Of a stretch of DNA of 51,429 bases, positions 40,348 through 49,842 are shown in pieces. The notes beneath the pieces are model-generated. The model worked only from the letters and a program-made list of their open reading frames with translations. It had not been told where the DNA came from and ran no database searches. Position 1 is the stretch's first letter; each line of letters opens with the position of its first letter. Origin of the DNA: Nitrososphaerales archaeon (GTDB lineage: Archaea > Thermoproteota > Nitrososphaeria > Nitrososphaerales > JACPRH01); NCBI GenBank assembly GCA_030745655.1, contig JASLOE010000004.1:1-51429 (forward strand), read 5' to 3'. The position numbers and the translations under genes were made by a program.

Positions 40348-41277
40348 ATGATCAACCCCTTCTATGGTAGGGACATTATATCGATAAGAGATTTTTCAAA
40401 ATTAGATCTTGAATATCTATTTAAGATGTCTGATAATATTCAGAAATTATCTCCTATGAAGTTGAAAGAATTGGCTTCAGGCAAACTCTTAGGCACATTG
40501 TTTTTCGAACCTAGTACAAGAACACGTTTAAGTTTCGAAGCAGCAATGCAATCAATTGGTGGTGGAACTGTATCGATAATTGAAGCTCGAACATCTTCAA
40601 TCGAGAAAGGAGAAAATCTTAATGATACGATTAGAACAGTAGAGTCATATGTAGATATTTTGGTTCTCAGACATCATATGGAAGGTGCCGCACGATTTGC
40701 AGCACAGATTGCAGAGAAACCTGTAATCAACGGAGGGAGTGGAATTGAAGAGCATCCTACTCAGGCAATGTTGGATATTTACACTATATTGAAAGAGAGA
40801 GGTCGAATAACAAATTTGAAAATCGCTGTCATAGGTGATCTAAAATATGGAAGAACTGTTTATTCTCTCCTATATGGTTTAGCACACTTCAACCCAAAAA
40901 TCTTTCTAGTCTCACCTCCTGATTTAAAGGTGAGAGATGAAGCGCTGATTGACCTTGAAGAAAAAGTTAAATTTTCTTTGCACGAAAATATTGAAGAAAT
41001 AATTGAGGAGGTTGATGCGATTTACGTAACCAGAATACAGAAAGAGAGACTTCCAGACCCTTTAGAATATGAAAAAGTGAAGGGGTCTTATGTGATCGAT
41101 AACAAATTACTTTCTAAGGGGCGGGATGACTTGATAATTCTTCATCCGTTGCCTCGTACAACCGAAATAAGACCTGAAGTAGATAAAACTCCAAATGCAA
41201 AATACTTTATTCAGGCACATTACGGGAAGATTGTACGAGCAGCTCTGATTAGTTTAATGTTGAATGAAAAGAATTAA
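40348..41277 (+). CDS. pyrB: Aspartate carbamoyltransferase catalytic subunit
   Basis: FFEPSTRT, HPTQ, GDLKYGRTV, RIQKER, HPLPR. Confidence 0.97.
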   Translation: MINPFYGRDIISIRDFSKLDLEYLFKMSDNIQKLSPMKLKELASGKLLGTLFFEPSTRTRLSFEAAMQSIGGGTVSIIEARTSSIEKGENLNDTIRTVESYVDILVLRHHMEGAARFAAQIAEKPVINGGSGIEEHPTQAMLDIYTILKERGRITNLKIAVIGDLKYGRTVYSLLYGLAHFNPKIFLVSPPDLKVRDEALIDLEEKVKFSLHENIEEIIEEVDAIYVTRIQKERLPDPLEYEKVKGSYVIDNKLLSKGRDDLIILHPLPRTTEIRPEVDKTPNAKYFIQAHYGKIVRAALISLMLNEKN

Positions 41278-43859
41278 GCGCAGAAACCCCAACCGCAATC
41301 AGGGCAGGTTGCACATCCTTCTAAAAAGAAGATCTGAGAATCACAGATCGGACAAACATCTCCTTTTTCTGTCTGGTCCCTATATTCCATTACATATGTC
41401 TGATCAGTTACATTTGATATACCAACAGTTCGCAGATTGTTATTATCTTTTGATTTTACAGATGGGTCTTCCAGATGTATAGACCCAATTGATTTAGTAG
41501 GTTTGTCGGTTCTTTTTCTCTTATTAGCTACTAATACTTGGTCCTTTATTGAGGAATCCCTAAAAACAGTGATATCCTTACAACCTAACTTATATGCTAG
41601 CAAATAACTTTCACGCATAGATTCAGTTGTTGCATCTGCTGGAAAATTATTTGTTTTAGAAATAGATGAATCAACCCATTTTTGAAGTGAAGCTAGTGCC
41701 TTTATATGATCTTCAGGAGTTATATCAAGTGAAGTTACAAATACGTCTTTTAACTTAGGTGAAATATATGCTATTTTCTGTACACTTCCATTTCTTTCGC
41801 TTACTTCACGAATCAAATCACTATCATACAGTCCTTCTGCATTCATGACTCTCTCAAAAACTGGATCAACATAGTGAAATTTACCTATTTTCACATTCTT
41901 TTCATATACCAAACTATATACCGGCTCAATACCACTACTACAACCCGCTATCATTGATATGCTCCCAGTTGGTGCTATGACTGTGGTATACGAATTTCTC
42001 AAGCCAACATCCTTAACTTTCGTGGCAATCTCATTCCAATCAAAGAAACATTTCTCATTGTTCTCGTATCCACTGAATGGAAGTTTGCCTTCATTAAAGA
42101 AACTCTTTTCAAAATATGGGAAGCTCCTACGACTTCTTGCTAATTCAATTGATGCAACTTTGGAATAATAGTTTACAAATTCCATTAATCTCTCCATAAA
42201 ATTTCTTCCATCTTCACTATCATAAGATATTCCTAAATCAAATAGGAGATCGCCCAACCCCATAATCCCCAGACCTATCTTGCGTGTTGATAAAGTCATA
42301 TCTTCAATTTCTTGTAATGGGAAGATGTTAATGTCAATTACATTATCAAGAAACTTAACAGCAGAAATAATGGTCTCTTTCAAACCGTCCCAATCAAAGA
42401 ATCGTTCTCCTCTATCATCTATTCTACAGAATGACCAGACATTTATGCTCCCTAAATTACAAGACTCATTAGGATATAGCAGTACTTCACCACAAGGATT
42501 AGTGCATTCTATTGGACCTAAAGAATCCATAAATGGGTTATGCTTATTCACATGATCTGAAAAAATTAAACCTGGTTCCGCACTTTCCCATGCTTGATAT
42601 ACTATCATGTCAAAAAGCATTCTTGGGTTAACTTCACGTATAACTTCACCGTTACGAGGATTTACGAGTGGATATGGCTCATTCTTCTCATAATAATCCC
42701 AGAAATCTGGAGATACTAAAACAGATATGTTGAAGTTTCTCAGAGCGATGTTACCTTTCTTGGCAGTTATGAACTTCTCAATATCTGGATGATTTATATT
42801 CATAATTCCCATGTTTGCGCCTCGTCTAATACCGCCTTGTTTGATTACCTCAGTCATCATGTCAAAGAGTCGCATAAAGCTAAGAGGTCCAGAAGCTATA
42901 CCTGAAGTTGAACTAACAATATCCCCTTCTGGTCTAATATTTGAGAAGTTGTAACCCATCCCACCACCAGACTTGAATATTATGGCCGCCTTCTTCAGAG
43001 TATCCATTATACTTTCTATAGAATCTTCCACTTTAATGACAAAACAAGCAGAACCCATTCCCAAAGGATTTCCAAAATTGGCTAAAACTGGGGTGTTCGG
43101 CATAAAGTGTTTATTTATCATTAAGTTATAGAATTCATCTGCTGTCTTCTCATATTTATCAAATTCAGAGTTTTGAAGTAACATAAGGAACCTACTCCAG
43201 TTCACTTTCATGAATCCATTAAGATTCATTCTGTCATATAGATGCTTCAACGATTCTAAATGATACCTATTTAACCGATATTTTCCAATGCTAAACTTAT
43301 CTTCATATTTTCCAAAATCGAAGTCCTCATCCTTATGTGTTGCAAGTCCACCGTCTTGATTGTATATTCTTTCATCAAATATTAAGTCCGTTAAAACAAC
43401 ATTAATCGTAACTCGCATAAATAATTGCTTAGGTGTTTCGATTAGTCGAGACCCATCTTTTCTAAGATATCTCGCCTTCATAACACGTAATGCATTGAGA
43501 TCAAAATGTTTGTCAACTTCATCTATGTCATCTTTTTCCAGAATTGTCTTTTTCTCTTCTCTTATCTCTGCTCTCTTCTGACGATAAAGGATGAATGCTT
43601 TTGCTGCTTTAGATTGTCCCTGCTCCATCAACACCTTTTCAACCATATCTTGAATATCTTCTACAGTAGGCATAGTGGATGGTGAAAACTTCATGTTCAC
43701 CAGCTCAACCAATCTATCTGAAAATCGTATTGCTAAACTTTTATCCTTACCACCTACAGATTGGATGGCTTTCCATAAAGCTATAGCAATCTTCTCTTGA
43801 TTAAATTCGAGAACCCGCCCATTACGTTTCTTGATCTTTGTGATTTTATTGGTTTCCAC
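41274..43859 (-). CDS. nrdJ: Class II (adenosylcobalamin-dependent) ribonucleotide reductase with ATP cone and C-terminal Cys cluster
   Basis: IKKRNG ATP cone, SACFV, RRGANM, TNPCGE, ESCNLGS, APTGSIS, CPIC...GCATCPDCG; no NrdB nearby. Confidence 0.92.
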   Translation of the reverse strand: METNKITKIKKRNGRVLEFNQEKIAIALWKAIQSVGGKDKSLAIRFSDRLVELVNMKFSPSTMPTVEDIQDMVEKVLMEQGQSKAAKAFILYRQKRAEIREEKKTILEKDDIDEVDKHFDLNALRVMKARYLRKDGSRLIETPKQLFMRVTINVVLTDLIFDERIYNQDGGLATHKDEDFDFGKYEDKFSIGKYRLNRYHLESLKHLYDRMNLNGFMKVNWSRFLMLLQNSEFDKYEKTADEFYNLMINKHFMPNTPVLANFGNPLGMGSACFVIKVEDSIESIMDTLKKAAIIFKSGGGMGYNFSNIRPEGDIVSSTSGIASGPLSFMRLFDMMTEVIKQGGIRRGANMGIMNINHPDIEKFITAKKGNIALRNFNISVLVSPDFWDYYEKNEPYPLVNPRNGEVIREVNPRMLFDMIVYQAWESAEPGLIFSDHVNKHNPFMDSLGPIECTNPCGEVLLYPNESCNLGSINVWSFCRIDDRGERFFDWDGLKETIISAVKFLDNVIDINIFPLQEIEDMTLSTRKIGLGIMGLGDLLFDLGISYDSEDGRNFMERLMEFVNYYSKVASIELARSRRSFPYFEKSFFNEGKLPFSGYENNEKCFFDWNEIATKVKDVGLRNSYTTVIAPTGSISMIAGCSSGIEPVYSLVYEKNVKIGKFHYVDPVFERVMNAEGLYDSDLIREVSERNGSVQKIAYISPKLKDVFVTSLDITPEDHIKALASLQKWVDSSISKTNNFPADATTESMRESYLLAYKLGCKDITVFRDSSIKDQVLVANKRKRTDKPTKSIGSIHLEDPSVKSKDNNNLRTVGISNVTDQTYVMEYRDQTEKGDVCPICDSQIFFLEGCATCPDCGWGFCA

Positions 43860-43925
43860 AATTATTCACCAAATCTTACTGAACAAATATGATGGGGAAT
43901 TGTTGTGATGGCTTTCTTGTTATCG

Positions 43926-43941
43926 GTGAAACAGTCTTGAC
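43926..43941. promoter_or_regulatory. Candidate operator, one-mismatch copy (GTGAA-N6-TTGAC), upstream of nrdJ
   Basis: GTGAAACAGTCTTGAC, 9/10 match to the palindrome at 44002 and 46360. Confidence 0.4.
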
Positions 43942-44001
43942 GCTTATTAATGCTCATAGCCACAACAACTTCAAAAAAAAGAGTTAATGAGACGCTTTTG
44001 G

Positions 44002-44017
44002 GTCAATAGCATTTGAC
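44002..44017. promoter_or_regulatory. Candidate operator GTCAA-N6-TTGAC upstream of nrdJ
   Basis: GGTCAATAGCATTTGACTTGA; arms and flanks shared with 46359-46379. Confidence 0.6.
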
Positions 44018-44188
44018 TTGAATAATGCAATGAAAACGCTCTCATTGCCTTGAATAATTGGATGTTGTTCATTATAGTCTCTAACACTTTGAGACCTGAT
44101 TTATTATAAAAATATTAGTGTACCAACTAAATAAAAGTGTAATTAGTTTGACATATAAAAAAAGTTTTTTTTAGATATGAATTTTTTT

Positions 44189-46288
44189 CTAAATAGTTGA
44201 GTATAGTTTCATAGAAGTTGATTTGCAAGAGTCACATTTCTCTGTTCCTTCAGGAAACTTGTCACCACATGCACGGCATACCGCCATTTTATGCCAAAGA
44301 TGATAAAATCCTGTATTTTTTTGTGCTTTGCCAATTATTTCTGATAACATCTCAATAGATCCACCAGTTGGTATCTCGATCTCAATTGTGGAACCTCCAG
44401 ATAATGATTCATATGATTTATGTAAATTTCGCAAATAATCTATCTTGGAAAGTTCTGAATGAGTAACTATGGGGGTCTGACTATATCTACTCTTACCGGA
44501 TGGAATAGATATTAACGATCTACCATATTTCTCAATGTCCATTGATGCAAAGCGCTCTCCAGAATCCCCTTGTATTATTGCAACAAATGCATTCTCATTA
44601 AGTTTCACACTAATGTCAGCAGCACTCTTAGAAGATGTCTCTAGTATTTTTTCCAATAAAGAACGTTTATCCGACATCGTTGCCCTTTCTCCTAACAATT
44701 TGATAATGGCTTCATTAAGGCCAGTTAGATTTACAATAAGCGGAACATATTCTTCTTCCACCATCGTTGTTCCATTAGTTAATGCCGGTAAAAGATTCTT
44801 TCGTGAAAGATTGCTTATTATCTTTTTTCGAGTATGTAGGGCACTTATTGACGTTTGTATAGCCATAGTGAGTTTGGCTCTAAAATACGTTTCATCTCTA
44901 TTCGATTCATAGGAAAGTCTTGGTAAATTAATTGCGAGAGAATGTAGTATTTTTACATTGTCTGCAGGAAACCTTTTTTCTCTATCTCTGCGCAATCCTG
45001 AATAAGCAATAGCACCATTCATATTATTGGATATTCCAATTTTTCCACCTGAATATATTGCAGATGATAACATACTTTTTAGCTTTGGTTCTATTTCTGA
45101 ATCAGTTGTGAATACTAAGTTTACCATAGGTTCAGAAACGCTCTTGACATATTCTTCGTATGCCAAAAATGTAGCTTCTAAAACTCTTTTTATCAAAGCT
45201 TCATCAAATTTTGATGAACTATTATCTTTACCCACTTGTAATGAAATAATTGGGATACCATGCCCTCCGATTGTAATAGCCGGTAAAAGCATTAAAGCTC
45301 TTTTTACCGTTTCTTTAAGTTCATGCTTAGTTTTCTCCTGAGCGAATTCAGCTAAATAGGATGTGAAGTTCTCTAATGATATTTCTGAGGAAACTTCTTT
45401 GCTAAGAATAGCGGTAATATTAACTAAAGTACTCAGAGCCTCATCAAGTTTTGTTGGGGGTTCTACCTTTGGAATTGCAGAAAGTTTACCCTTAAGATTA
45501 ATTCCATTGATTCTTAATGCCTCAAGATCAAAAAACACAGTATCAGGCATAAGTCCCCAGCTTCCACCATTTGAAATATGAATCTCACCTGCTAGATGTG
45601 CATCGGTGACATCTCTTGGTAGTTGCGAGAGCATCAAATATTCTGAAAAAACAGCATTCGCTGTCTTGGATAAAACGGTTCCAACATCCCCTTCACCAAA
45701 ACCTGTATTGTTTATCATTTCTGAAATATCATAAATAGGTAGGCCGAGTCGTGTTAGTTTATGTCTATACTCTTCAAATCCATGCTCTACAAGTAATGCA
45801 TTAACCATCTCTCTTATGAGTGGTGCTGTCAAGTAAATAGTCTGAAATTTATAGAGCCTGGCCTCGGTTTCGCTAGTGATTCGCTGTGCTAATTCTACTG
45901 GCATTCCTGCTTCTCTAACTAAAGATTGAAGGATTTTATCAGAGTTGAACTCCTCCATTGTCTGTCTTGAAGTTCTAACATAGAGCTTTCCGCTCTCAAC
46001 AACAGATTGTTCTTCTATCTGTCTTGTGACATTTAATACAAGCCTTCCCAGACTTGTAACTGTGTATTTTCGTTCTTGTCTATTTAGAGATATAAGCATT
46101 TGTCTTACAAGCTTGCGAAGATGGTATGCAAATTTACCTGATTCTTTTTTTGATTTAAACCCAGCTAATGTTTTAAGCTCAGAATAGCTTAATGGCCCTT
46201 TTGTGTTAAGGATGCGAAGAATCTCCAGTCTATTTGAAGATGCTATAACTGAATAGATCGTTCTAACTCTTCTGGAAACAGGTTGCAT
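44189..46288 (-). CDS. Winged-HTH + ATP-cone + inactivated class III RNR (NrdD-like) fusion; probable transcription regulator
   Basis: ArsR-like HTH (NRLEILRIL...SYSEL...FAYHLRKL), ATP cone (VRTS..EEFNSDKI...LIREMVN), NrdD motifs (DAHLAGEIHI, AINLPRL, CRAC...CDSC); catalytic Cys and glycyl-radical loop missing. Confidence 0.85.
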   Translation of the reverse strand: MQPVSRRVRTIYSVIASSNRLEILRILNTKGPLSYSELKTLAGFKSKKESGKFAYHLRKLVRQMLISLNRQERKYTVTSLGRLVLNVTRQIEEQSVVESGKLYVRTSRQTMEEFNSDKILQSLVREAGMPVELAQRITSETEARLYKFQTIYLTAPLIREMVNALLVEHGFEEYRHKLTRLGLPIYDISEMINNTGFGEGDVGTVLSKTANAVFSEYLMLSQLPRDVTDAHLAGEIHISNGGSWGLMPDTVFFDLEALRINGINLKGKLSAIPKVEPPTKLDEALSTLVNITAILSKEVSSEISLENFTSYLAEFAQEKTKHELKETVKRALMLLPAITIGGHGIPIISLQVGKDNSSSKFDEALIKRVLEATFLAYEEYVKSVSEPMVNLVFTTDSEIEPKLKSMLSSAIYSGGKIGISNNMNGAIAYSGLRRDREKRFPADNVKILHSLAINLPRLSYESNRDETYFRAKLTMAIQTSISALHTRKKIISNLSRKNLLPALTNGTTMVEEEYVPLIVNLTGLNEAIIKLLGERATMSDKRSLLEKILETSSKSAADISVKLNENAFVAIIQGDSGERFASMDIEKYGRSLISIPSGKSRYSQTPIVTHSELSKIDYLRNLHKSYESLSGGSTIEIEIPTGGSIEMLSEIIGKAQKNTGFYHLWHKMAVCRACGDKFPEGTEKCDSCKSTSMKLYSTI

Positions 46289-46359
46289 AGACTTAACCTC
46301 TCTATGTGAAGGTATTTTAATTTAATTAGAAATTTTCAACCTAACTATCTATGCTTGTG

Positions 46360-46375
46360 GTCAAGGCTTATTGAC
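46360..46375. promoter_or_regulatory. Candidate operator GTCAA-N6-TTGAC upstream of the HTH-NrdD gene
   Basis: GGTCAAGGCTTATTGACTTGA. Confidence 0.6.
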
Positions 46376-46520
46376 TTGAGTGAAATCAATCTTAAAATTA
46401 ATTTAAGAATAATGAATTCTGTTTTATTGATAATATTTTCTTAATAATTATTATCTTCTGATAGATACTCTTAACTAATTCCTTATTTTATGTTATCATC
46501 TATCTTTGGATTGAAGTTGA

Positions 46521-48125
46521 ATGTCTGCAGCTGAGGGAATACTCTTTCTGGGTCTCCTAATAATTGGAGGTAAAGTCTTCGAAGAGCTATTTGTAAAAGT
46601 TAAATTGCCAGGACTTTTGGGTAATGTTTTAGCGGGGTTAATTCTTGGCCCAAGTTTTCTTTCTATTGTAAAACCTACAACTGAAATTGAATTATTCACA
46701 AGTCTAGGAATATTCTTTCTCTTTTTCTTGGTTGGTGTAGAAGAGATTGATCTTCCCGGTTTGTTATCTTCGCTTAGGCGAAGGGTCTTTTATACAGCTG
46801 CAGTGAGTTTCTTAGTTCCTTTTCTATTATCTTTTTACATGTCTCAAAGTATTGGAATAAATAATATTTCAAGTCTTGCTCTAGCCGGAGTAATTGGGTT
46901 ATCTAGCCTTGGTGTAGTTGCTAAGACTCTCTCTGATTTGGACCACCTTAGGGACCCTGTTGGATTAGAAATATTTAGTATTACTGCAATACTTGAATTT
47001 GTTGGTCTAATTACAATTAGTCTTATTCTGCAGTTATCAGCAGAACCATTATCATCTGCACCATTTCAATTACTGGTTACTCTTGGTAGAATGACACTTT
47101 TTTTCATCGTGGCATCATTATTCAGCCTCAAAGTACTTCCAATTCTTCTTAGATTTATTAGGCGCCATACAGAAGTTAAAGGAGTTTTCTTCGGAGTTTT
47201 GATAGGAATTGTCCTATTATTCGTCTATATCGGTGAGATCAACGGTGTTCATGGTGCAATAACATCTCTATTAATTGGGCTTGCACTTTCACAAATGCCT
47301 AAAAAAGATTATCATCAGAGCATCAGTGGATTACGAAGTATAGCAAATGGAATATTCGTTCCAATATTTTTTGCAGGTGTGGGTCTTCAGATAACATTCA
47401 AATTTTTAGAGCTTGATTTATCATTGATAATAGGTTTCATTTTAGTGGTTGTGGTGGGAAAATTTTCTGGAGCTTTTCTAGGTGCCCTTGTAGGACGAAT
47501 GAAATATCCTCTTTGGATAAGCTCAGGAGTTATGGCGAAAGGATCAATAGATTTAGCATTGATGCTTACTTTATTTAACCTGAATTTGATCGATCAAAAA
47601 ATATTCTCCCTTGGTACCTTTTCAATTCTTCTTCTACTGGTAATATCCCCACTGTCAATGCGTCTATTATTAAAGAAAGGAGATGAAGATACGGAAAAAA
47701 TCGGTGAAGATCTGATTCCAACATATACAGAACTTGCCTGTGAGGGTGTGAACGTCAAAGACGTTATGTCTAATAATACATTAACAGTGAGAGATAAAAT
47801 AACTATCGATGAATTTCTTAAACATCTTGAGAAAGGAGAACGTTTCTATAATGTCGTTGATAAAGAAGATAAACTAATTGGACATGTCTCTGCAAAAGCC
47901 CTTAAGAAAAGTCGACGCCGATATTGGAAGACAAAAAGTGTAGGATCGGTTATGAGAAAACGAAGGGTTAGAGCGTTCGAAGATGATGATATATCCTCTA
48001 TTGTTGAGAAAATGTCGCGTAGCGGTGTTGATCCAATACCTGTAGTCGATTCATCAGATACTTCTAAGATAATCGGAACTATTTCAAGAGAAAATATTAC
48101 TTCATTTTTATTTCCAAAAAAATAA
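46521..48125 (+). CDS. CPA2 cation:proton antiporter with C-terminal CBS pair
   Basis: GLILGPS, FVPIFFAGVG, GKFSGA, about 12 TM; VKDVM / VGSVM CBS domains. Confidence 0.92.
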   Translation: MSAAEGILFLGLLIIGGKVFEELFVKVKLPGLLGNVLAGLILGPSFLSIVKPTTEIELFTSLGIFFLFFLVGVEEIDLPGLLSSLRRRVFYTAAVSFLVPFLLSFYMSQSIGINNISSLALAGVIGLSSLGVVAKTLSDLDHLRDPVGLEIFSITAILEFVGLITISLILQLSAEPLSSAPFQLLVTLGRMTLFFIVASLFSLKVLPILLRFIRRHTEVKGVFFGVLIGIVLLFVYIGEINGVHGAITSLLIGLALSQMPKKDYHQSISGLRSIANGIFVPIFFAGVGLQITFKFLELDLSLIIGFILVVVVGKFSGAFLGALVGRMKYPLWISSGVMAKGSIDLALMLTLFNLNLIDQKIFSLGTFSILLLLVISPLSMRLLLKKGDEDTEKIGEDLIPTYTELACEGVNVKDVMSNNTLTVRDKITIDEFLKHLEKGERFYNVVDKEDKLIGHVSAKALKKSRRRYWKTKSVGSVMRKRRVRAFEDDDISSIVEKMSRSGVDPIPVVDSSDTSKIIGTISRENITSFLFPKK

Positions 48126-49074: not shown

Positions 49075-49842
49075 TTACAGTAAATTAACTCCCTGTAACC
49101 TTGGGTCATTTGTACTGAGCCACACCGGATTCCCAATTTCACGTCTATTCTTAGCAAGGTTCACAACGTTTTGTGTTCGATGAAAATTTTCTTCGTATAC
49201 ATGGAAACTTTCAGCCGTATCAACATATTGACCTACCTTAACCCCAATTCTTTCAGCAATAATTTTCTGCAAATTGGTTAAAGCCCACATATTCATAGGA
49301 GCTGCTGCATATGCATCCCTACTTCTCCAGTATGTATGTAATTCTAATTGTTCATCAATAACTTTACACCAAATTATTTGGAGACAGGGTGGTCCAACCT
49401 CTGGGTGTTCATCGTTCCAAACCATCCATGTAACTGCTTGAGCTCTATTTGAGTATGGTGAATTTTTCAGTTTCTCAACAATATACTCTATTTGATCAAT
49501 AATGCCTTTGGTTGCTGGCTTATATTGAAATAATCTGTCATGGTATGTGTAATCATAAGCCTTTCCAATCAGATGATTTTTTTTCCCAAGGATTACATCA
49601 TCTGAATAATCATCAAAATCTTTTACTCTTCCCCATTCAAGATGGAAACGAGGTTCTTTCAAAGGTTGTCTAATCACCATCCTTATTGAACACTCCTTTA
49701 TCCTGTCTTTCTTTGTCTCAAATTTGTAAGATTCCTTAAACGAGGTAATCCCTTTATTCCAAAGTATCTCCAAACTTTTTTCCCATACTTCGGGTAAAAC
49801 CTCTCCCTCTACAAGAAATTGTGGAAGGTATCTTTTTGCCAT
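49075..49842 (-). CDS. thyA: Archaeal-type thymidylate synthase
   Basis: YTYHDRL, DQIEYI, SNRA, PPCLQ, RSRD..AAPMN, SFHVYE. Confidence 0.88.
   Translation of the reverse strand: MAKRYLPQFLVEGEVLPEVWEKSLEILWNKGITSFKESYKFETKKDRIKECSIRMVIRQPLKEPRFHLEWGRVKDFDDYSDDVILGKKNHLIGKAYDYTYHDRLFQYKPATKGIIDQIEYIVEKLKNSPYSNRAQAVTWMVWNDEHPEVGPPCLQIIWCKVIDEQLELHTYWRSRDAYAAAPMNMWALTNLQKIIAERIGVKVGQYVDTAESFHVYEENFHRTQNVVNLAKNRREIGNPVWLSTNDPRLQGVNLL

Follow-up and report, generated by a model that had tools for sequence, protein, structure and literature searches.

A conserved inverted repeat at the nrdJ locus of a Nitrososphaerales archaeon as candidate operator of a pseudo-NrdD regulator

The nrdJ locus and its inverted repeats

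The 51,429-nt stretch of DNA analyzed here (the window) is contig C44 (JASLOE010000004.1, positions 1 to 51,429 of the forward strand) of the genome of a marine Nitrososphaerales archaeon, GCA_030745655.1 (G000; 902,772 bases in 65 contigs, 35.8% GC, 88.75% complete). It carries a class II ribonucleotide reductase (RNR) gene of the nrdJ type (41274–43859) and, just upstream, the gene for a 699-residue protein (44189–46288), both on the minus strand. The inverted repeat GTCAA-N6-TTGAC lies in front of each gene, and we argue that it is probably an operator read by the 699-residue protein, hereafter the regulator. The presumed target gene, nrdJ, scores 509 bits against Pfam Ribonuc_red_lgC, with an N-terminal ATP-cone and Ribonuc_red_lgN. 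In the regulator a winged helix-turn-helix (wHTH) domain (residues ~1–95) and an ATP-cone (~100–185) precede a NrdD-like core with a zinc (Zn) ribbon; the Pfam scores are 112.8 bits for NRDD, 41.2 for DUF7347, 33.8 for the ATP-cone and 26.0 for HTH_20, the last being below its cut-off of 27. Database names for the regulator family are inconsistent, namely anaerobic reductase, HTH protein or ArsR regulator. The gene for a Na+/H+ exchanger, which has CBS domains, is divergent and begins at 46521.

An initial annotation of this DNA had pointed to two 21-nt strings, GGTCAATAGCATTTGACTTGA at 44001–44021 and GGTCAAGGCTTATTGACTTGA at 46359–46379, and to a one-mismatch copy, GTGAAACAGTCTTGAC, at 43926–43941, and all three are present in the sequence. 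The two strings contain the exact palindromes, to which no strand was assigned. The first, O_A (46360–46375, GTCAA-GGCTTA-TTGAC), lies 72–87 nt upstream of the regulator ATG (46288) and is presumed to be autoregulatory, and the second, S2 (44002–44017, GTCAA-TAGCAT-TTGAC), lies 143–158 nt upstream of the nrdJ start (43859). The one-mismatch copy, S3 (43926–43941, minus strand), reads GTCAAGACTGTTTCAC on the gene strand and lies 67–82 nt upstream of the nrdJ start, a distance nearly equal to that between O_A and the regulator gene. A fourth site missed by the initial annotation, S1 (44137–44152, minus strand), reads GTCAAACTAATTACAC on the gene strand with two mismatches and is found 37 nt past the regulator stop codon, just after a T-rich run. 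At both exact sites the centers of GTCAA and TTGAC are 11 bp apart, equal to one helical turn, and the centers of S2 and S3, and of S1 and S2, are 76 bp and 135 bp apart, respectively. The nrdJ start itself is likely the GTG at 43859, two codons downstream of the position of the ATG of the relatives L002–L005, which in the window is ATA (43859–43865).

Two further elements accompany these sites. On the minus strand, 25–32 nt before the regulator ATG, is the sequence TTAAAATA (46313–46320), which we take to be TATA-like from general knowledge of archaeal promoters and not from the output of a tool. It is contained in a weak, half-site-like ATTAA-N6-TTCAC (46306–46321), 54 bp from O_A. Around S2 there is an outer inverted repeat, AATGAGAC(G)...(C)GTCTCATT, with arms at 43986–43999 and 44033–44046 (no strand assigned), followed by a T-run at ~43968–43978.

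Rarity and placement of the palindrome

The exact palindrome occurred twice in the window, compared with 0.05 ± 0.22 times in 100 dinucleotide shuffles, none of which contained two copies. The initial annotation had seen, by eye, no full copy in the other intergenic regions it inspected, and in the entire genome all 65 contigs contain only these two exact copies, both in front of nrd genes, inside two intergenic regions that together span 562 bp. Because base composition (35.8% GC) alone predicts about one exact copy per genome, the signal lies in the placement of the copies and not in their number. With one mismatch allowed, the window had four matches against 2.04 expected, and 21 of the 100 shuffles reached four; the copy at 43926 is not significant by itself, and its conservation in relatives supports it as a probable site. 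Summed over 41 genomes, the relaxed pattern GTYAA-N6-TTRAC gave 186 sites and its reversed control gave 315. Hence, the motif is rare overall and not enriched, and its placement alone is special. Of 14 distinct GTCAA-N6-TNNAC sites genome-wide, four were within the 562 bp of the nrd intergenic regions, a count that is descriptive only because the pattern was defined after the sites had been seen.

A palindromic matrix built from the sites of 29 relatives was also used to scan the genome. The site at 46360 ranked first (score 20.9) and that at 44002 second (20.5), while the third match scored 14.4; the copy at 43926 had rank 15 and a score of 11.3, and matches 3–7 were located inside open reading frames (ORFs). 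The motif is thus not at background level at the nrd promoters, which hold the only two exact copies and the two best matrix matches. The wider enrichment upstream of nucleotide-metabolism genes that the initial annotation had envisaged was not found, neither among the matrix matches of this genome nor at the exact palindromes of relatives. The sole other GTYAA-N6-TTRAC site in the genome (C33:74091) precedes a 255-residue ORF without a Pfam family, and 7 of the 15 other exact palindromes in relatives lie inside ORFs. The 14 flanking ORFs scanned at the other palindromes of relatives included no nucleotide-metabolism family, and 11 of them had no family at all. No regulon beyond the regulator gene and nrdJ was found. 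A thymidylate-synthase-like gene (49075–49842; PF00303, 73.7 bits) is located 3 kb from the regulator gene, and no GTCAA-type site was detected near it in the window scans.

Conservation of the sites in relatives

The regulator protein was matched in 38 of 41 relatives, and the gene order regulator–nrdJ was found in 21 of 30 fetched loci. Across the phylum the regulator family is present in 194 of 301 genomes and comprises at least 4,205 protein clusters.

On the regulator side, the exact palindrome is present in all six loci of the same family (the window included) at the same distance of ~72–87 nt. The alignment of these six genomes upstream of the regulator gene shows only two conserved islands, the palindrome and the AT-rich TATA-like block 54 bp downstream, and the spacer within the palindrome varies (TAAGCC, CAAGCC, GAAGCC, TAAGCA). 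In two of the relatives (L003 and L004) the upstream neighbor is a co-directional ORF of 207/208 residues that ends 29–31 nt before the palindrome, and the palindrome is still 72–73 nt before the regulator ATG. Since it is kept in place when the upstream neighbor changes, the palindrome belongs to the regulator gene, and the option raised in the initial annotation, that the site at 46360 serves the divergent antiporter, is not supported.

A blind test was carried out with all palindromes composed of a 5-mer, a spacer of N0–10 and the reverse complement (11,264 patterns), allowing one mismatch, over the 250 nt preceding and the 350 nt following the regulator gene in 29 relatives, with the window genome excluded. 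GTCAA-N6-TTGAC ranked first with 19 of 29 loci, followed by GTTAA-N6-TTAAC and one pattern of A and T only, with 11 loci each. Equal lengths of coding region gave 0 of 29, and in 60 dinucleotide shuffles the mean for GTCAA-N6-TTGAC was 0.70 and the maximum 3, with 12 as the best count of any pattern. Conservation upstream of orthologues, as expected for the operator named in the initial annotation, is therefore borne out, by exact copies in 6/6 family loci and by copies with at most one mismatch in 19/29 relatives, the top result of 11,264.

On the nrdJ side of the six-genome alignment, each of S1, S2 and S3 combines GTCAA, read on the gene strand, with a less strict T-n-n-A-C six bases further on. 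In S2, TCAAGTCAA is invariant in 5 of the 6 family loci (L006 has GTCAT), and the right arm TTGAC is found in the window only, the five relatives having TTAAC, TTAAC, CTGAG, CTAAG and CTAAC. For S3, CGTCAA or AGTCAA and its T-n-n-A-C partner are kept in all six loci, and for S1, TGTCAA-N6-T-n-n-A-C is found at the matching place in five of them (L002 has ATCAA). The flanking G...TTGA is indeed identical at both exact sites of the window, as stated in the initial annotation, but this identity is partly coincidence; the flank of the regulator-side site varies in relatives and TCAAGTCAA is conserved at the nrdJ-side site only. Overall, GTCAA-N6-TTGAC is conserved together with the regulator–nrdJ pair in the order, and it is very probably a protein-binding cis element of that pair.

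Further away, the picture on the nrdJ side differs. Searching the 74-nt block around S2 against 59 loci with nhmmer gave strong matches only in the six family loci and duplicate copies, and E ≥ 0.017 elsewhere. In family f13 (20 loci, L085–L104, mostly complete genomes and close kin), GT[CTA]AA-N5-TTGA[CAG] is found ~108–129 nt after the regulator stop codon and before nrdJ in 14 of 20 loci, where unrelated patterns reach 16 of 20. A perfect nrdJ-side example, GTGTCAA-N5-TTGACAC, occurs in L093. A conserved ATGAA-N-TTCAT palindrome precedes the N5 site in 16 of the 20 loci, the two elements lying in a region ~95–130 nt after the regulator stop codon. Small ORFs in the nrdJ intergenic region were also considered and rejected, as judged by eye, the frame not being conserved between L001/L003 and L004.

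Protein-binding sites or RNA hairpin

The same inverted repeats might instead form an RNA hairpin, i.e., an attenuator, terminator or riboswitch-like structure in the nrdJ leader or at the 3' end of the regulator gene, with S2 as its tip. Such a structure would fit the nesting of S2 within the 14-nt outer inverted repeat and the conserved T-run that follows, and folding of the 81-nt stretch, taken on the gene strand, has a z of −2.3. In the outer helix, 2 of 14 pairs are changed on both sides; the covariation score of 0.042 (against 0.023) is reached by 27 of 500 shuffles (six sequences). The GTCAA/TTGAC helix itself behaves differently, with no compensatory pairs, three of its five pairs broken in relatives and the C-G pair kept in 2 of 6 loci; S1 and S3 keep one arm only. 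Because one arm is fixed while the other drifts, the sites are better described as a strong half-site and a weak half-site than as a stem. The regulator-side region has z = −0.2 relative to shuffles and a minimum-energy fold that bypasses the palindrome, and its site precedes the TATA-like box and so probably lies outside the transcript of the regulator gene. No Rfam family reached its threshold (best 22.5 bits against 45). Overall, we regard an RNA hairpin as very unlikely to account for the GTCAA-N6-TTGAC sites. The outer repeat is a separate matter: its core ATGAGA/TCTCAT is invariant in 6/6 family loci, it is centered on the GTCAA half-site and not on the S2 palindrome, and it may serve as a hairpin (terminator or attenuator) or as the site of a second protein.

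A NrdD fold with a DNA-binding head

The sequence profile and the predicted structure both place the core of the regulator among the class III reductases. The alignment profile matches solved NrdD structures (4coi, 4e-12; 1h78, 2e-10), and the AlphaFold model (mean predicted local distance difference test score, pLDDT, 79.3) gave Foldseek matches to 9dca (E = 8e-22) and also to 4coj, 8p2s and 1h79, with E values up to 2e-15, at a sequence identity to solved NrdDs of only 13–16%. The profile alignment puts Cys290 of T4 NrdD, the thiyl-radical cysteine on the finger loop, on a non-cysteine column. None of 24 orthologues has a cysteine in that column, and the only conserved cysteines are those of the four Zn-ribbon columns (24/24). 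All 24 proteins end 11–27 residues past the last CxxC and lack the C-terminal glycyl-radical motif of NrdD (R-V-x-G-Y type). A search for the activase NrdG in the genome gave no match for TIGR02491 and a best score of 58.4 bits for TIGR02495 against a cut-off of 131.15; as the genome is 88.75% complete, NrdG was not found, which is no proof of absence.

Considering the NrdD fold, the missing catalytic cysteine and radical tail, and the wHTH domain, the protein is, by its sequence, a dead NrdD with a DNA-binding head and a putative pseudo-enzyme regulator analogous to NrdR. Of the label 'HTH-NrdD' used in the initial annotation, the HTH and the NrdD fold are retained, whereas the implied enzyme is not.

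In the 24-sequence alignment, residues 1–185 (wHTH and ATP-cone) are nearly invariant and the core is far less so. No change was seen in the HTH stretch GFKSKKESGKFAYHLRKL among the orthologues compared (22/22), although their overall identity to the window protein goes down to 42%. The ATP-cone (PF03477) scores 33.8 bits for a cut-off of 25.8. A profile search of the wHTH against the PDB gave weak matches to MarR, ArsR and SmtB chains that were not significant (E = 0.056–0.85).

Eight homologues from other orders show another state of the C-terminus. Four of them (L075, L076, L077 and L080) keep a longer tail of 40–50 residues beyond the Zn ribbon; at the position of the radical glycine motif three of them read RVAY, RFAY or RVSY, and L077 reads GGY. 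These longer tails resemble intermediate stages in a decay of the glycyl-radical domain that may have preceded its loss in Nitrososphaerales.

Which protein reads the palindrome

The genome also encodes a canonical NrdR (C1:10034–10468), which scores 170 bits against a cut-off of 124.65 for TIGR00244; this model matches the gene on contig C1 only and not the 699-residue protein. The palindromes could thus be variant NrdR boxes read by that protein, and NrdR boxes are likewise described as 16-bp partial palindromes in PMC13584703, which gives the conserved positions C4, A6, A8, T9, T11 and G13 and pairs of boxes with a linker of 15–16 bp. GTCAA-N6-TTGAC lacks C4/A6/A8/T9/T11/G13, and the best double box in the two nrd intergenic regions has 8 of 12 conserved positions, compared with 11 of 12 at C1:9976 and C1:10008. 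Because of this difference from the true nrdR locus, the palindrome is not an NrdR box. NrdR was above the cut-off in 1 of 41 genomes only, the present one, and the palindrome is kept in relatives without NrdR. We consider it next to impossible that NrdR reads these sites.

The nrdR gene is part of a second, bacterial-style RNR module (C1:5000–15000, L050) that encodes, in this order, thyX, an ORF of unknown function, NrdR, a class II RNR of 930 residues that includes a TSCPD domain, and a small protein rich in Cys. At the start of nrdR there are NrdR-type boxes at C1:9976, 10008 and 10040, separated by 16-bp linkers. None of the 40 relatives has an NrdR above the cut-off. The GC content of contig C1 (36.6%) fits the genome, and the module may stem from horizontal transfer, from a mobile element or from a binning error.

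We put the probability that GTCAA-N6-TTGAC is read by the adjacent protein with its wHTH, ATP-cone and pseudo-NrdD core at about 0.7. In all cases in which the motif was found, the HTH is invariant. A genuine operator might also be read by an unlinked transcription factor, in which case the HTH-pseudo-NrdD protein would have a different role, such as the recognition of other DNA or a purely allosteric partnership with NrdJ. In this respect it is relevant that all evidence tying the protein to the motif is associative, and that some lineages with an identical HTH lack the motif or have a changed form of it (10 of 29 relatives; the N6 form in 0 of 20 loci of f13). Several observations speak against such a factor. 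The motif is found before the regulator's own gene in 6/6 family genomes, follows this gene when the neighbors change, and is essentially confined to the regulator–nrdJ locus genome-wide. In G010, which is 99% complete, there is no regulator match and nrdJ is next to a tRNA gene; no palindrome match within two mismatches was found in ~1.5 kb upstream of that nrdJ. The second nrdJ copy of G026 (C54, L052), which is not linked to a regulator, has a single two-mismatch match, at −314. In the 5–6.3 kb examined at each of the eight loci from other orders, whose homologues differ in HTH sequence, there was no GTCAA-N6-TTGAC within one mismatch. As far as eight loci show, therefore, motif and recognition helix change together. 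An unlinked factor is, in our judgment, unlikely. Genus g9 has a second nrdJ paralogue, which is adjacent to a tRNA gene and lacks both regulator and palindrome, and G010 (C5, L059) has this copy only.

A number of points weigh against binding by the adjacent protein and its proposed role. The link between protein and motif is one of association. The perfect nrdJ-side palindrome is peculiar to the window genome, and the right arm of S2 is degenerate in 5/5 family relatives. Ten of the 29 relatives have no match within one mismatch. In f13 the N6 palindrome was found in 0 of 20 loci, with none seen upstream of the regulator gene, and the apparent change of 1 bp in the spacer with an unchanged HTH needs explaining. 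The ATP-cone score is only 33.8 bits (cut-off 25.8), and the protein lacks the K-R pair with which, as we understand it, the canonical ATP-cone motif starts; nucleotide binding is therefore putative. The strong sites of the window lie ~46–51 bp upstream of TATA-like boxes, not the classic place for an archaeal repressor. Finally, the nrdJ promoter was not located, and contigs from four metatranscriptome runs covered parts of the regulator coding region and neither intergenic region, such contigs being unable to show transcript ends.

A model of regulation by the pseudo-NrdD protein

The initial annotation had proposed the operator of a dimeric wHTH regulator acting on a target gene and on its own gene. 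Placement and conservation agree with this proposal; binding by this particular protein, its dimeric state, its ligand and the direction of control are proposed parts of the model. In the model, a nucleotide-sensing factor would control its own gene through the site at 46360–46375 and nrdJ through the array of three sites at 44137, 44002 and 43926. The protein would dimerize via its NrdD-like core, as real NrdD enzymes do, such that two invariant winged-helix heads could read two half-sites with centers 11 bp apart. The ATP-cone, perhaps together with a retained allosteric site for deoxyribonucleoside triphosphates (dNTPs) in the dead core, would convert the ATP/dATP balance into changes in DNA affinity or oligomeric state. 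RNR synthesis would then track dNTP demand, as it does under NrdR in bacteria.

Regarding the sign of regulation, we lean slightly toward repression. In other families the site before the regulator gene overlaps the TATA-like box (L007, L015) or abuts it (L012, with two mismatches, and L024), while in the family of the window and in L013 it is located ~50 bp upstream. The abutting and overlapping positions elsewhere, and the weak ATTAA-N6-TTCAC over the TATA-like box here, are the reasons for a lean toward auto-repression, in which a strong distal site and a weak proximal one might be occupied cooperatively. The strong sites here, ~46–51 bp upstream of the TATA-like boxes, are in a region that archaeal activators also use, and activation from the upstream site is possible.

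In its widest form, to which we give about even odds, the model states that a complete class III RNR gave up radical chemistry, retained the ATP-cone and perhaps an allosteric dNTP site, acquired a winged-helix head and came to control the RNR of Nitrososphaerales. It would do so through GTCAA-N6-TTGAC in front of its own gene and through the several GTCAA half-sites upstream of nrdJ. Changes of oligomeric state driven by nucleotides, which real NrdD and NrdR also undergo, would bridge sites 54, 76 and 135 bp apart and so switch both genes, making the protein an enzyme-derived, convergent counterpart of NrdR.

To our knowledge, the control of RNR transcription in archaea is largely unknown. 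NrdR is rare in archaea according to PMC9110341. A search of the full-text literature, with subscription journals and supplements outside its scope, returned no paper that deals with a regulator of the HTH/ATP-cone/NrdD-like type in archaea or with its operator, and term look-ups in PMC11226230 and PMC9531940 gave nothing on such a regulator or operator. A defined 16-bp operator is a directly testable handle on the control of DNA-precursor synthesis. If the model is true, it describes, for Nitrososphaerales (ammonia oxidizers and their heterotrophic kin), a regulator unlike any reported so far. It would also correct a common mis-annotation that implies anaerobic dNTP synthesis in aerobic ammonia oxidizers.

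Comparison with known systems

The archaeal regulators TrmBL1 and SurR exert effects that depend on site position, with palindromes upstream of, or over, the transcription factor B recognition element (BRE) and TATA box. The sites described here similarly vary in position relative to TATA, in this case across families, but the proteins and motifs are unrelated. With ArsR/SmtB and MarR regulators the present system has in common a wHTH, an inverted repeat with half-sites one helical turn apart and a site before the regulator's own gene. Here, the sequence likeness is marginal, and the presumed sensor is a 500-residue pseudo-enzyme with an ATP-cone instead of a site for metals or small ligands in the HTH domain.

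NrdD enzymes share the fold, the N-terminal ATP-cone and the C-terminal four-cysteine Zn ribbon with the regulator, which differs from them in having no thiyl-radical cysteine, no glycyl-radical motif, no activase that we could find and an additional N-terminal wHTH. The closest parallel in function would be NrdR. According to PMC9110341, NrdR is likewise an ATP-cone DNA-binding protein encoded next to an RNR gene, has 16-bp palindromic sites before RNR genes and its own gene, several per promoter, and is presumed to read out the ATP/dATP balance. In contrast, NrdR binds DNA with a Zn-ribbon head and the 699-residue protein would do so with a wHTH; the latter carries a whole dead NrdD core, and its candidate box is unrelated in sequence. 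The sites are also arranged differently, at 76 and 135 bp here as opposed to the 15–16 bp linker between NrdR boxes given in PMC13584703.

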